Shown here: one piece after another, positions 35,280 through 45,803 of the stretch
Position numbering within the stretch: position 1 is the first letter of the stretch
Layout of the letters: each line of letters opens with the position of its first letter
DNA from: Octopus vulgaris
Lineage: Eukaryota
DNA length: 64,000 nucleotides
Assembly (NCBI GenBank): GCA_951406725.2
Contig: OX597839.1
Span: forward strand, 7,192,001 to 7,256,000
Direction of reading: 5' to 3'
Notes under the pieces: generated by a model
Told to the model about the DNA's origin: nothing
The model's database searches: none
What the model saw: the letters and a program-made list of their open reading frames with translations, nothing else
Made by a program: the position numbers and the translations under genes

Positions 35280-36122
<843 letters not shown>

Positions 36123-39675: not shown

Positions 39676-39689
39676 CAATGATGATGATA

Positions 39690-40435
39690 AAATTGGTACG
39701 ACCGCAAACCCGAAGGCATCATCGAAAATGATAATGCAAAGATCCTGTAGGATTTTATGATTCAGTGCGACCATGGGATAGAGAATAGGAAGCCAGACAT
39801 AGTCTTAATTTAGAAAGAAAGCAAACAATGCTGGATCATAGATATATATTTCTTTACTACCCACAAGGGGCTAAACATAGAGGGGACAAACAAGGACAGA
39901 CATAGGTACTAAGTCGATTACATCGACCCCAGTGCGTAACTGGTGCTTAATTTATCGACCCCGAAAGGATGAAAGGCAAAGTCGACCTCGGCGGAATTTG
40001 AACTCAGAACGCAGCGGCGGACGAAATACCGCAAAGCATTTCGCCCGGCGTGCTAACGATTCTGCCAGCTCGCCGCCTTCTTGGATCATAGATATAGTGT
40101 ACCCAGCTGACAACAAGGTATGCGATAAGGGGGAAAGAAAAGTCGATAGATATGACAGGTTAGCTTGGGAGGTTAAGCAGTTGTGTTCGATGAAAAAGGT
40201 GGTAGTAGTACCAATAATTTTTGGAGCCCTTGGAACAGTGAGTAAAAATCTTGAGAATTACATGGAACAAATAGCGGCTGCAATGAGGATGGAGCACTTG
40301 CAGAAAACAGCACAGCTTGAAACCGCTCGAATATTCCGGATTGTGCTCGAAAAATAAGGGATGTTACCTTAGTTCACTGGTAGTGAACAACTCACCCCGT
40401 AGTACATCTCGAGCGTTAGAGGCTGTGCAAAGGCA
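39690..40435 (+). mobile_element. R4/Dong-type LINE 3' remnant no. 2 (restriction-like endonuclease domain), interrupted by a SINE
   Basis: WYDRKPEGIIENDNAKIL*DF..RKPDIVLI..WIIDI..VVVPIIFGALGTV..LQKTAQLETARIFRIVLEK*; (AAT)n on both sides. Confidence 0.88.
39847..40080 (-). mobile_element. SINE family A nested in the LINE
   Basis: 15-bp TSD tggatcatagatata at 39832-39846 and 40082-40096. Confidence 0.93.
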
Positions 40436-41358: not shown

Positions 41359-41731
41359 CTAGCAGTATCGCCCGGCGTTGCTCGGGTTTGTAAGGGAAAT
41401 AAGTATATAAGCATTTTTAGAGAGTTATAGCCAAAAAATAGCAAAAATATGCATTAAAAATGGAAAAAAAATTATGGTAAACTTTTTTAAAATCGTTGAC
41501 TCATCGCAGACATTTTTAGAGAGTTACTTCCCTTATATAATAGCGAAAAAATGCATTAAAATGGAAAAAAAATGATGGTAATTTTTTTTTAAAATCATAG
41601 ACTCATCGCTCGATATGAATCACGACTATAAGATACCCGGTTTTGGTTAAACTGCACCGCAAAATGTGGGAGTAGTTAGGAATCTAAATCGTAGGAGACA
41701 GACACACAACTTGACTTTTATATATAAACGA
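41359..41731 (-). mobile_element. Non-autonomous Helitron
   Basis: Minus strand begins TC..tatatataaaa and ends with hairpin cccgagcaacgccggg plus CTAG; inserted between A and T; internal tandem repeat of about 100 bp. Confidence 0.75.
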
Positions 41732-41744
41732 TATTCTGAAGCAA

Positions 41745-41922
41745 TGGTGCGCATATACTCCTCCCTAACGATGTTTTGCTCAGTTGTGCTGGTTGCGGGT
41801 CTCCCAGGACGTTCGTCACTATCGACATATTTCGGCCATCTTCGAAACGTATGAACCACTCGTACACTTGTCTGCGGCTCATACACTCCTCTCTATACAC
41901 TTTCTGCAACTTTTTGTGGGCT
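41745..41922 (-). mobile_element. Mariner transposase N-terminal (HTH) fragment
   Basis: HKKLQKVYREECMSRRQVYEWFIRFEDGR, frameshift, VDSDERPGRPATSTTEQNI. Confidence 0.85.
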
Positions 41923-42032
41923 ATAAGCATTTGCGAAGGGAAATCCTCGTTCCCATCTCTAACCTTACGTGATACACACGGACTCGGGTTTCTGAGTAGT
42001 AATCCGTCATCAGCGTGTGACAATCACCAGCT

Positions 42033-42653
42033 TTTCTCTTTATTATAGGCGCAAGGCCTGAATACAGAGGGGACATACACAAACATGCGGAACAAAAAAA
42101 CATATGAAAGAATGAATTACAATGAATTTGCCCCAGCATGGCCACAGCTTGTGAGCTGAAACTAAATAAAATAAAAATAAAATAAAATAAAATTACAATG
42201 AATGTGAGATGGTTTCTCGTTCCCGCTCCGAGACGAAACCGTGATTTACTTTTTTACAATTAAACGTTCTTACAGTCTTTTCTTTTTTCTTTTTTAGCTC
42301 GTTCTTTTTTAGTCTTTTTTTATTGTTTTTTTGTCCTTTTTTTTCTTTATACATTTTAACAGTCTATTTTCCTCGTTTTTTATAGGAAGTACAAATTTTA
42401 CTTCTTTTTAAATGTTCATAAAAGGTTTCAAATCGTCTAATTCCACTTTGTCTATTCTCCATCTTTCTCCACTCCTCCCTTATAGACGGGGATTATACAG
42501 GTGCAAACGAGACAGTGTCTGAAATTCAACAATTTACACAATCCAAAGAATCTTGGTTCACCCGCGAGGGGAAACCTACAACAAACATACAATTTCAGTG
42601 CGTAACAATTTGAACTCACATCGAAGAAATCACAATCAACACCCATTAGTGGC
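42033..42653 (-). mobile_element. Internally deleted non-LTR retroelement, copy A (5' UTR, first ORF1 codons, 3' UTR)
   Basis: 5' 210 bp match 44450-44655 and 3' 400 bp match 42665-43018; ATG GAG AAT AGA CAA AGT starts at 42462; ends in aataaa plus an A-rich tail. Confidence 0.85.
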
Positions 42654-42664
42654 AATCACCGGTT

Positions 42665-44655
42665 ATTTATTTATTATAGGCACAAGGCCTGCATACAGAG
42701 GGGACATACACAAACATGCGGGAACAAAAAAACATATGAAAGAAGGAATTACAATGAATTAAATTATAATGAATATGAGACGGTTTTCTCGGTCCCACTC
42801 CGAGACGAAACCGCGATTTCTTTTTTACAATTAAACGTGCTTACAGTTTTTTTTCTTGCTTTTTTTTCGCTTTTTTTAGCTTGTTGTTTTTATATTATTT
42901 TTTTTTTTCTTTATACATTTTAACAGTCTATATTCCACGTTTAGTTTTTTTATGTAGTACAAATTTTACTTACTTATTTTTAAATATTCATAAAAGGTTT
43001 CAAATCGTCTTATTCCACGTCAAACTCGACTTATAACAAAAAGTTAGTGAAATATTAAAAAAAATTACAGTTGGATCGACAGACAAATATAACAAACTAA
43101 TTTGACAAAAAATGTGAATTTTTAATTATTTTCTGAGATTTTACAAAAATTAAAAAAAATATTATTAAAATTATTTTAAAATTTTCTATGCAAAGTCCAT
43201 ACATATCTCTTCCTATGAAAAGTCAATACATCTCTCTTAATTTCAAAAATCTCTCTTTAACTATGACCACTCCCCTCGTGCATTCCGGGCACCTTCCTGG
43301 CGGCAGCCCCCTTCATATTACAGATTTATACCTCACAATCGCTCTCTCCACCTCTTTACCTCTGGAATACGTGACCAAATGCCACTTACACCTCCCTCCT
43401 TTCACTTCTGCTTGCTCCGGACCCCGTCCCGATGCTCGGGCGCGCCGAAACATCACAACCAACTCCACAAACGCCTCTTCCTCCTCCCTCTGCAATGCTG
43501 TCCCTTCCTGTGTGCCCTCCTTCACCACCGCTTCTGTTGGTGCTTCACACCCACCTCTCCCTTCCTACATCACAACCTCCCTCAGACCCCTTGACTGTCT
43601 GGGGAGAATTCACCCGTACCCCCTCCTCCCCGTGTCTACCACTGTGAAGGGCTCCTCCACTCCACCTGTCACCCTCGCCGGCACAACTTCCTCAGCACTG
43701 CTTTCTTCACCCTTCCTCTCCTCCTCGTCCTCCCTCTCGAGACATCTCGTCCCCTTTTGTCCACCCCCCAGCCACATAGGAAGCATGTTGGTGGTCCCCC
43801 TCCACTGCCACTCGAAGTCCGCCGTCTTCCGGGAGTACTACTTCCTCCGCTTCACTATGCAAGTCCTCCAAAGACACCTTCATGACCACCTCGAGGCTAC
43901 AGCCCCACCAATTGGATCTCGAGGTCCCCGTCATCTTGAGGATCCCCACTCCATCCCTAATATCTCGCATCACGGCCGCCACCAGCCATTCCTCCTTGAA
44001 CTTGGGGGGCGGGCACCCCTTCAACTCCCACTCCGGCAGCGTGCCCGCCGCAGCAATTCGGTAGCAGCATCCATTTCGCTGTCTCCAACGTCTCCGTGGA
44101 GCGGTCCACGGCATCTTCCTCGCTACCAAACCCCACTTCCACAGAGCCACATCTTCCACGTGCATAGAACGTGGTCAACTCCTTCACACTCTCGAGGCAC
44201 TCCTCCGCCTCCTCCACTGGGACCACCTCCATCCTGTTCGAGGACGCAGACAACGCTCCGTACATCATCATCCTCCTCTCCATGCCCCCCCCACCAGCTC
44301 CTCAGGGGGAGCCAGCTTCAGACTGGTTCCCTCCCTCCCTCCCCACAAACCCCCTCCTTCCTTTCTCCCTCCCTCCCACGTCCACTGCCACTTCCTGCAC
44401 CTCCAGGGTGCTGGCATTCACTCCCCGTGTCGCCGCCGCCGCGTCTGCGCAACCCTGTCCACCCTCCACCCGTCCTCACTTCTCCCGCAGACGGGGACCA
44501 CACAGGTGCAAACGAAACAGTGTCCGAAATTGAACAACCTACACAACCCAACGAATCCCGGCCCACCCGCGCGGGGAAACCCACAACAAATATACAATAT
44601 CAGCGTGTAACAACTCGAAGTCACATCGAAGAAATCACAACCAACACCCAGTGGG
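42665..44655 (-). mobile_element. ORF1-only non-autonomous non-LTR retroelement (L1/Tx1-like), copy B, about 2 kb
   Basis: Bounded by aatcacc(a/g)g(c/t)t target repeats; 5' UTR, decayed ORF1, AT-rich 3' UTR and (aata)n tail. Confidence 0.8.
43223..44469 (-). pseudogene. Gag-like ORF1 pseudogene with degenerate CCHC zinc knuckle, A-to-G hypermutated
   Basis: Frameshifted frames ...YARGRCGSVEVGFGSEEDA..LLPNCCG..VPPKFKEEWLVAA..RVAVEG.PPTCFLCG..GQKGTRC (C-X2-C-X4-Q-X4-C at about 43742-43787); start codon is GTG where copy A has ATG. Confidence 0.7.
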
Positions 44656-44771
44656 AATCACCAGCTAGGGGTGAGAACTGATTCCGAACGCAAAATACTA
44701 TATGCTTTTTCCAGTGGCAAGCCGTCACTGATTTTCAAAAGGGAGAAACAAAACAAGCAATAATAAACATA

Positions 44772-44945
44772 TTTGCATAGAAAATTTTAAAATAATTTTA
44801 ATAATATTTTTTTTAAATTTTTGTAAAATCTCAGAAAATAATTAAAAATTCACATTTTTTGTCAAATTAGTTTGTTATATTTGTCTGTCGATCCAACTGT
44901 AATTTTTTTAAATATTTCACTAACTTTTTGTTATAAGTCGAGTTT
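44772..44945 (+). repeat. Inverted copy of 43022-43194 (about 172 bp)
   Basis: Reverse-complement match with only homopolymer-level differences. Confidence 0.92.
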
Positions 44946-44965
44946 ATAAACAGTAGCAGCACGAC

Positions 44966-45803
44966 ATCGTGAAGTATATTTGCCACCTAAATGTGGTTGA
45001 TCCATATGGGACGATGCTACTGTTGTTTATAGCCCTAGGAAGACATCACGTTTTCGAGATCAGTGATGATTTGTCACTGGAAAAAGCATATAGGATTTTG
45101 CGTTTGGAATTAATTCTCATCCCTAGCTGGTGGTTGTCACACGCTGATGACGGGTTACTACCAGAAACCCGGGTCTGTGTGTATCACGTAAGGCTAGAAA
45201 TGGGAACGATAATTTCCATTCGCAAATACTGATCGAGGATATTTTCCTTTTGATGGACGGAATTCAACACAATTTCTAGTCAACTAAACAGTTTGAAACT
45301 TCGTATACTGGTAGAATATGTCAAAAGAAAACATTATTTTCACTTGGCTTTTTTGAGAAAATTGTAATTTGTAAGTTTAACGTAGTTTAATTTTTCGAAT
45401 TTCCTTTTGATATTTAAGAGATATGGCTGTTATTTCTAGCACATGCCTCCTCGTTTGTTTATCAATATTGATAACGCAGCAAATGATTTGAACTCAAATG
45501 CTGGCAATTCATTGGTTAAAATTCGAAGAATTAAACTACGTTAAACTTACAAATTACAATTTTCTCAAAAAAGCCAAGTGAAAAAAATGTTTTCTTTTGA
45601 CACATTCTACCAGTATACGAAGTTTCAAACTGTTTAGTTAACTAGAAATTGTGTTGAATTCCGTCCATCAAAAGGAAAAGATCCCTGATCGAACACAGAG
45701 TGTCGTTAGCCAGCTGGAGAAGCTGTCTTCCGAGGGTTAAAAACAGCAGTAGCATCTTCCCGTATGGGTGATGTACATTGAAATGGAAAATATACTTCAC
45801 GAT
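44966..45803 (+). mobile_element. Older MITE with degenerate TIRs of about 80 bp (atcgtgaagtatatt...)
   Basis: 44966-45047 pairs with 45722-45803; contains the empty retroelement target and a nested MITE. Confidence 0.75.
45237..45684. mobile_element. Foldback MITE with TIRs of about 165 bp, GGAT ends and 8-bp TSD
   Basis: TSD ctgatcga at 45229-45236 and 45685-45692; arms share aaacttcgtatactggtagaat with the telomere-bearing MITE. Confidence 0.92.

Follow-up and report, generated by a model that had tools for sequence, protein, structure and literature searches.

Structure of the locus

The window (G000:C26:7192001-7256000), the whole 64,000-nucleotide stretch analyzed, belongs to the 2.80-Gb Octopus vulgaris assembly G000, within which L-numbers denote loci. 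On its minus strand it carries two units of one retroelement family, copy B and, in tandem behind it, copy A (Table 1). Both units are enclosed by a single pair of 11-nt target-site duplications and lie in a palindromic host repeat (41923-45233, arms 85-89% alike), which is followed by a second palindrome of 460 nt (45231-45690, 82%). Part of the host spacer is highly repeated, as judged by contig depth. The body of B extended to 43213 rather than ending at 43290, the limit set in an earlier note on this DNA. Near the end of its ORF, B is interrupted by an inverted duplication of host spacer that sits at an 11-nt microhomology. This duplication looks much younger than the insertion (approximately 7% diverged at non-A sites) and thus probably represents a later templated repair or was homogenized by conversion; the edited tract of B ends before reaching it.

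Copy A had been taken as a copy comparable to B, which it is not: it is an internally deleted unit in which reference position 214 is joined to 1483. The same deletion recurs at L003 (3344-3918), 700 kb away on C26, which suggests a mobilized short derivative. Splicing was dropped as the source of the deletion (no AG acceptor, 2-nt microhomology), as was a reading of the B and A tandem as split direct repeats of Ngaro/DIRS type, since insertion of whole units at a fixed target agrees with the target duplications, the tails and the varying tandem arrays.

Elsewhere in the window, positions 35403-36000 hold frames of broken transposase type, which we take from their translation to resemble a mariner-type transposase, with similar fragments near 12873-13217 and 41718-42023. 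A further fragment (39680-40357), broken up by a SINE-like repeat and with similar fragments in L010 and L015, presumably resembles the C-terminal restriction-like endonuclease region of a non-LTR element.

Table 1. Features of the element pair (positions in the window) and, in the last eight rows, edited tracts of the family of B and A (family 1; positions in the family reference)
Feature	Position	Strand	Remarks
A>G hypermutated tract, copy B	43268..44616	-	first to last edited site; 230/507 family adenosines are G
Copy B, 5' UTR and ORF1-like region	43213..44655	-	family reference 1-1438
Copy B, start codon position, GTG	44467-44469	-	sequence
Inverted duplication of host spacer 44772-44945	43022..43194	.	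98.85% identity; interrupts B near ORF end
Copy B, ORF end, 3' UTR and short A-rich tail	42665..43021	-	unedited, 2/153 A
Target-site-like junction between units B and A	42649..42664	-	variant unlike the duplication of the locus itself
Copy A, internally deleted unedited unit	42033..42648	-	reference 1-214 joined to 1483-1849
Target-site duplication, 3' copy, 11 nt	42022..42032	.	sequence
Target-site duplication, 5' copy, 11 nt	44656..44666	.	sequence
Host repeat arm 1, portion past element 3' end	41923..42032	.	89% inverted match to 45125-45233
Host repeat arm 1, portion past element 5' end	44656..44740	.	85% inverted match to 45051-45135
Host repeat arm 2 (inverted), second target-site copy, empty	45051..45233	.	
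Tract, copy B	50-1383		
Tract, L103	50-1762		
Tract, L104	302-880		
Tract, L102	576-1087		
Tract, L105	50-331 and 804-971		
Tract, L091	435-981 and 1169-1206		
Tract, L092	920-1193		
Tract, L093	959-1184		

An ORF1-only element at a fixed target

The element is an ORF1-only, non-autonomous, target-specific non-LTR retroelement. Its unit measures about 1.85 kb and has a single ORF of about 430 codons between a T-rich 5' UTR and a 3' UTR, which is followed by a short A-rich tail. The N-terminus reads MENRQSYAAATTQG or MENRQSYTAATTQG in the family (L007, L022) and is not of the SYADA type that had been suggested for it; the run of GCG in B varies in length between samples. The protein contains a zf-CCHC domain at the Pfam cut-off and, in a low-confidence model (pLDDT 44), a ferredoxin/RRM-like domain at residues 85-171. 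Structure searches yielded nothing more specific than a ferredoxin-like fold of generic type (best Z 8.0, rmsd 3.1, 82 aligned) and matches to zinc knuckles, and L1 ORF1p was absent among the listed fold matches of the model. The look-alikes of the ORF in the protein atlas were CCHC and ZCCHC3-like clusters (at 0.90-0.92), and those relatives that bear a species name were Octopus proteins. A Pfam scan of 90 of the 92 downstream frames (two near-duplicate L116 frames were omitted) gave no match to endonuclease or RT families. Mobilization would be expected in trans, by a LINE reverse transcriptase.

Copies of the family occupy one target site of the palindromic host repeat. The host's own variant of this site is found on both sides of the element in L001, L004, L005, L007, and L009; the two sides are mismatched in L016, L025, and L092. 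Tandem arrays are common, and their repeats are whole tandem units, not LTRs, a target-specific and tandem-forming habit that, to our eye, presumably recalls Tx1-clade elements. Pieces reaching the 3' end share that end and have A-rich tails, and 32 of 43 are short at the 5' end. A further 22 pieces reach the 5' end and not the 3' end, which indicates that later rearrangement is common.

Adenosines of the family are guanosines in copy B

As a family reference we used the majority sequence of 43 loci (1,854 nt, 710 A). Against reference positions 1-1438, B had 230 A>G changes at 532 adenosines, compared with 4 T>C, 20 G>A and 11 C>T; within the tract the edited share was about 45% (230/507) along approximately 1.35 kb. 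Unedited copies had 503 A>G changes at 18,890 adenosines (2.7%; background counts were made without the divergent copies L087, L094, and L095 and, for context, also without L030). The 3' part of B (2/153) and copy A (3/52 and 5/154) were at background level. When B was set against 29 other loci, most long copies gave 190 to 232 A>G changes and at most 32 of any other class, and three partly G-rich copies were conspicuous. The earlier note had described the same bias from copies A and B alone, and its counts were reproduced: between 42446-42662 and 44448-44668, 25 of 39 mismatches were T>C on the plus strand, 4 were C>T and each other class had at most 3, and the 18 nt at the start codon contained six A>G changes, including ATG to GTG. 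Little is gained by regarding copy B as inactivated by these changes, given that a non-autonomous element is concerned and that frames are broken in most unedited copies too.

At 220 of the 230 edited sites, A is carried by at least 80% of the unedited copies, and only 26 of the 230 edits have a 5' C. The family thus carries A where B carries G, B is in the derived state, and both the polarity and a non-CpG origin of the changes are settled. The least probable of the explanations considered is accordingly that G is ancestral and the family was mutated from G to A, that CpG decay produced the pattern, or that the tract is an assembly artifact; nothing specific favors any of these, and A-rich copies retain open frames of up to 394 amino acids. 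The bias is specific to one strand. Nor is there a G-rich subfamily to which B could belong, as edited copies have unlike tracts and do not group on a tree. None of the three conditions that the earlier note had set for refuting its reading therefore held. G>A changes in B were at the level of unedited copies, and an APOBEC-type excess of G>A on the sense strand was absent.

The edited state of B was also present in contigs from other samples and is not an error of the assembly. Run X2, from another sample and study, gave a 1,187-nt contig matching B over 43230-44318 with 12 differences and 3 gap letters. Run X5 (organism label B) covered 44112-44318 and 44396-44650 with 7 and 4 differences, and run X7 (organism label C) covered 43601-44175 with 29 differences and 18 gap letters. 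Unedited copies are only 70 to 75% alike to B overall, and the three contigs therefore carry the edited state. Run X1, possibly the assembly's own source, was left out of this confirmation, as were runs X4, X6, X8, and X9, which had small shares; the contigs of X1, X5, and X7 cover B in part, with the flanks unbridged. No second copy with the edits of B appeared in G000, from which we infer that the contigs are orthologous to B. At contig level, the B insertion is fixed in the germ line and common to samples and organism labels.

Edited tracts recur in three related families

Tracts of the same kind were present in 8 of the 43 family-1 loci, including B (Table 1). Five further copies with strong tracts belong to sister families, the three families being approximately 65 to 75% alike. 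One of these copies, L119 (63 of 213 adenosines edited), was the single such locus among 30 of its family; in the other sister family, 30 loci yielded one strong (L161), one moderate (L147) and two weak tracts (L164 and L153), and a search with an edited query brought in 9 more loci, among them L184, L189, and L195. The tract of L161 was counted as that of an ORF1-family copy, and the weak and moderate tracts were kept outside the 13 strong ones. In all 13 strong tracts, the changes were A>G on the sense strand of the element, with copies in both genomic orientations, and the tracts stopped at element boundaries.

The same scan found no T>C tract in an element body. The T>C flags of L134 and L159 fell in flanking microsatellite-type sequence (seen directly in L134 and judged from positions in L159). 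The G>A flags of L133, L135, L141, and L094 had A>G signals of similar size beside them or scores under 21, and one G>A flag in L161 dropped to 10 with more relatives. Other repeats contained no tract in 37 kb of callable sequence, a small control next to 158 kb of ORF1-family sequence.

With unedited queries, 3 of the 40 scored candidates from family 1 were edited pieces, as were 1 of 30 and 2 of 30 from the two sister families. These frequencies are biased in both directions, and a fair range for the edited share of insertions is about 5 to 20%.

Neighbor preference of the edited adenosines

Across the tracts of the eight edited family-1 copies, 2,126 reference adenosines were read as G in 807 cases, C in 17 and T in 34. 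Changes of A to C or T were at background level (P = 0.76), so that A>N mutagenesis of the DGR type was absent. The edited fraction in the eight densest tracts was 0.30 to 0.52. In family 1, the editing rate depended strongly on the 5' neighbor (T 0.60, A 0.54, C 0.29, G 0.12; P = 2e-71) and also on the 3' neighbor (G 0.49, C 0.41, T 0.37, A 0.32; P = 2e-9), with no significant effect at offsets -2 and +2; among triplets, TAG was edited most (0.76) and GAT least (0.09). The order of 5' neighbors T, A, C, and G was the same in B alone (0.71, 0.64, 0.32, and 0.17) and in family 3 (0.61, 0.48, 0.28, and 0.11), in which the 3' rates were 0.41 for G, 0.37 for C, 0.30 for A and 0.29 for T. Pooled edits were rarer at codon position 2 (0.34 versus 0.42 and 0.45; P = 0.0008, uncorrected for context); for B alone this gave P = 0.16.

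For human ADAR2, the neighbor order given in Table 3 of PMC3113232 is U>A>C>G on the 5' side and G>C>U~A on the 3' side, and the same source places the ceiling of editing in long duplexes at 50 to 60% of adenosines. The order in the tracts equals that of human ADAR2 in its hyper-editing of long double-stranded RNA, and the 45% reached in B is near this ceiling. According to the available text of PMC5625713, the octopus is one of the two species with the strongest hyper-editing signal, and its hyper-edited reads have a weak preference for a 3' G, at 20 to 25% of sites. In the tracts, 280 of the 807 edits (35%) had a 3' G, against a local background of 573/2,075, a preference that is moderate and above that in the octopus RNA report. 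Hyper-editing as described in both sources occurs at the RNA level and is transient, whereas the octopus tracts are in DNA.

The spectrum and the context also bear on a different origin of the tracts, namely, error-prone reverse transcription of unedited RNA, through either adenine-specific misincorporation like that in DGRs or an imbalance of dCTP and dTTP. Such copying requires no duplex, for which a partner has not been found, and would still produce the sense-strand polarity and the tie to retroposition. DGR mutagenesis gives A>N, however, and the tracts lack any A>C or A>T excess; their neighbor orders on both the 5' and the 3' sides match those of purified ADAR, and they have sharp 3' limits. 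We therefore regard error-prone reverse transcription as very unlikely.

The edited copies look like separate events

In every pair of copies tested, each copy had private edits (120 and 48 for B and L103, for example). Of 46 to 100 changes other than A>G, only 3 to 9 were common to B and other edited copies. A tree built without the reference-A columns was star-like with low support, and the edited copies were scattered over it, except for L092 and L093 (support, 0.85). These sisters, with similar tract ends, had 21 common edits versus 20.8 expected from context, which fits two RNA molecules of one donor edited separately. Given the differing tract limits and edits and the star-like tree, the 13 copies look like separate events, repeated at least 13 times in three related families.

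Amplification of one or a few edited master copies, in which case the 13 copies would not be separate and ADAR could still be the first cause, would help to account for the site sharing, which exceeded the expectation from triplet context in 13 of 20 pairs (P < 0.05), and for the tract ends at 1184-1206 in three copies; the low support of the tree also leaves room for it. The excess sharing could equally reflect wider context or partly common ancestry. The private edits on both sides of each pair, the small number of shared changes other than A>G and the spread of edited copies over three families as divergent as these make such amplification extremely improbable, more so than copying errors. 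Divergence at non-A sites was 0.074 in edited and 0.073 in unedited copies (P = 0.75), an equality that fits a single burst of A>G changes at insertion.

Tract geometry and the putative RNA duplex

In all eight edited family-1 copies, the tract began within 7 adenosines of the 5' end of the piece, and after it 16 to 369 adenosines were nearly untouched. The last 90 nt were spared in all eight copies and the last 400 nt in seven; these criteria were chosen post hoc, as was the product of the per-copy sliding probabilities (about 1e-13), which also depends on tract limits set by the analyst. Five of the eight edited pieces were short at the 5' end. Such a geometry is expected from target-primed reverse transcription if the 3' tail of the RNA is single stranded and its 5' part is an edited duplex.

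Tracts that hug the 5' end of the insertion could also reflect an intermediate at the 5' junction, if adenines were deaminated on DNA during or after integration, e.g., by ADAR acting on sense DNA paired with antisense RNA or on the newly made second strand close to that junction; with ADAR as the enzyme, the same context would be expected. Editing of first-strand cDNA in an RNA:cDNA hybrid would, however, appear on the sense strand as T>C, contrary to the observed direction, and deamination tied to host transcription would not track the element strand in 13 of 13 copies. In addition, the tracts end at element boundaries, the 37 kb of callable other repeats is free of them, and hypoxanthine in DNA is normally repaired. 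Deamination on DNA is thus, in our view, as improbable as error-prone reverse transcription.

Copy B is instead very probably a DNA fossil of ADAR-hyperedited RNA that was retrotransposed in trans. Hyperediting before reverse transcription is the reading that the earlier note had proposed and that the DNA signature of B supports, with the ADAR step deduced from that signature. In the sequence of steps that we envisage, a donor transcript would have paired with antisense RNA of the element over 0.2 to 1.7 kb, as the tract lengths suggest, and an ADAR with ADAR2-like neighbor preference would have deaminated 30 to 50% of the adenosines in the duplex. Reverse transcription would then have started at the unedited 3' tail and read inosine as G, which would account for the observed geometry. 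It may often have ended inside the edited duplex, leaving 5'-truncated copies, and the insertion would subsequently have become fixed in the germ line.

No internal inverted repeat longer than 26 nt was found in the element, and a fold-back inside one element was rejected on this ground. Since the element cannot fold on itself, the partner should be a second copy. Each arm of the inverted host repeat contains the target, so that double insertions would lie head to head, and read-through would fold back outward from the 5' ends. One clear double insertion was found (L103:1957-3772, G000:C2, about 85.83 Mb), a head-to-head pair in the two host arms with its center deleted and with an edited full copy approximately 4 kb downstream; L027 holds an inverted tail remnant. 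The second host arm was empty in most loci where it was visible. None of the donor duplexes sought matched the observed tracts, the L103 pair included, and three-letter (A/G-collapsed) alignment beside the edited copies revealed no hidden inverted or more edited piece other than the known inverted copy at L103. In L105 an unedited gap separates the two parts of the tract, and in L092 (1611-2748) an unedited 5' piece (1-218) is joined directly to the edited tract (from 906/920), a join that is possibly a template jump between two RNA molecules. To fit these two copies, the fold-back model must invoke a switch of template or the loss of the partner by deletion. A fold-back across two head-to-head copies in the arms of the host palindrome is nevertheless the most likely source of the duplex, with chances roughly balanced against antisense RNA supplied in trans.

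More broadly, and only tentatively, ADAR hyperediting in the octopus may be a recurring germ line mutagen of retrotransposing RNA, touching perhaps 5 to 20% of insertions of the ORF1-only superfamily, with duplexes arising from targeting of both arms and head-to-head fold-backs and with the inosine-rich duplex also shortening reverse transcription. We consider this wider reading somewhat less probable than its opposite. If it were true, the octopus genome would contain hundreds of dateable fossils of germ line ADAR specificity, and other animals may hold similar ones.

Relation to known systems

A-to-G hyperediting linked to ADAR has been described in retroviruses, namely, RAV-1 (Felder 1994), avian leukosis virus (Hajjar and Linial 1995), and HTLV-2/STLV-3 (Ko 2012), as cited in PMC8586724, where the HTLV-2/STLV-3 case is given as confined to cell culture and probably rare. 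As in the octopus copies, clustered A>G changes are attributed there to ADAR acting on RNA that was later reverse transcribed. Retroviruses are infectious, whereas the octopus substrate is a non-LTR, non-autonomous element, fixed in the germ line in many copies.

In vertebrates, APOBEC-mediated "DNA editing" of LTR retrotransposons leaves G>A changes through C-to-U deamination of cDNA (Knisbacher and Levanon, PMC4866542). Like the octopus tracts, these scars record a burst of deaminase activity during retrotransposition and are strand biased, context specific, up to hundreds of sites in size and fixed; they are G>A in vertebrate LTR elements, and the octopus tracts are A>G in invertebrate non-LTR elements. 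As far as the available text of that study goes, its focus was on LTR elements with DNA transposons as the control, other mismatch types were very rare and invertebrates were at noise level.

For ADAR1 restriction of human LINE-1, the text available from PMC5224506 reports that editing was not found across more than 2.5 kb of L1 RNA and favors an editing-independent mechanism while allowing for a small edited fraction. ADAR meets non-LTR RNA in both systems, and the octopus copies would be such an edited fraction kept in DNA. If this reading is right, they provide direct evidence of ADAR editing non-LTR RNA in germ cells in vivo, unlike the human L1 case. They would also be the ADAR counterpart of the APOBEC scars, in the animal group with the highest editing activity. 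We found no report of germ line-fixed ADAR hyperediting in non-LTR elements in the literature searched, a set with most subscription papers outside its scope, and the available text of PMC5974252 makes no mention of the fixation of edits.

RNA editing is usually treated as non-heritable, and the copies described here would reveal a repeatedly used route from A-to-I editing to germ line DNA, with more than 200 substitutions introduced in one step. Datable copies common to species would make the history of germ line ADAR preference testable from genomes alone. Edited copies also inflate estimates of repeat age and could pass for RNA editing if reads that are genomic or wrongly mapped are placed on unedited paralogues.

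In anatomy the element resembles HAL1 (half-L1), which, as described in the available part of PMC5753468, is likewise non-autonomous and has one ORF1-like gene and no reverse transcriptase. HAL1 derives from L1; the octopus element is HAL1-like in anatomy and is, in addition, target specific and tandem forming. Its ORF1-only superfamily is very large, with 13,062 first-look candidates genome-wide (also L041-L060 and L106-L195), and several relatives are annotated as host genes, e.g., LOC118764025 and LOC106878453. Some family-2 elements lie in recent segmental duplications, L054/L055/L112 (G000:C10, 95.25-95.52 Mb) and L043/L048 (C11, 10.72-10.73 Mb), with 98.8 to 99.9% identity for L054/L055 and L043/L048; some of those on C10 are inverted, approximately 42 kb apart.
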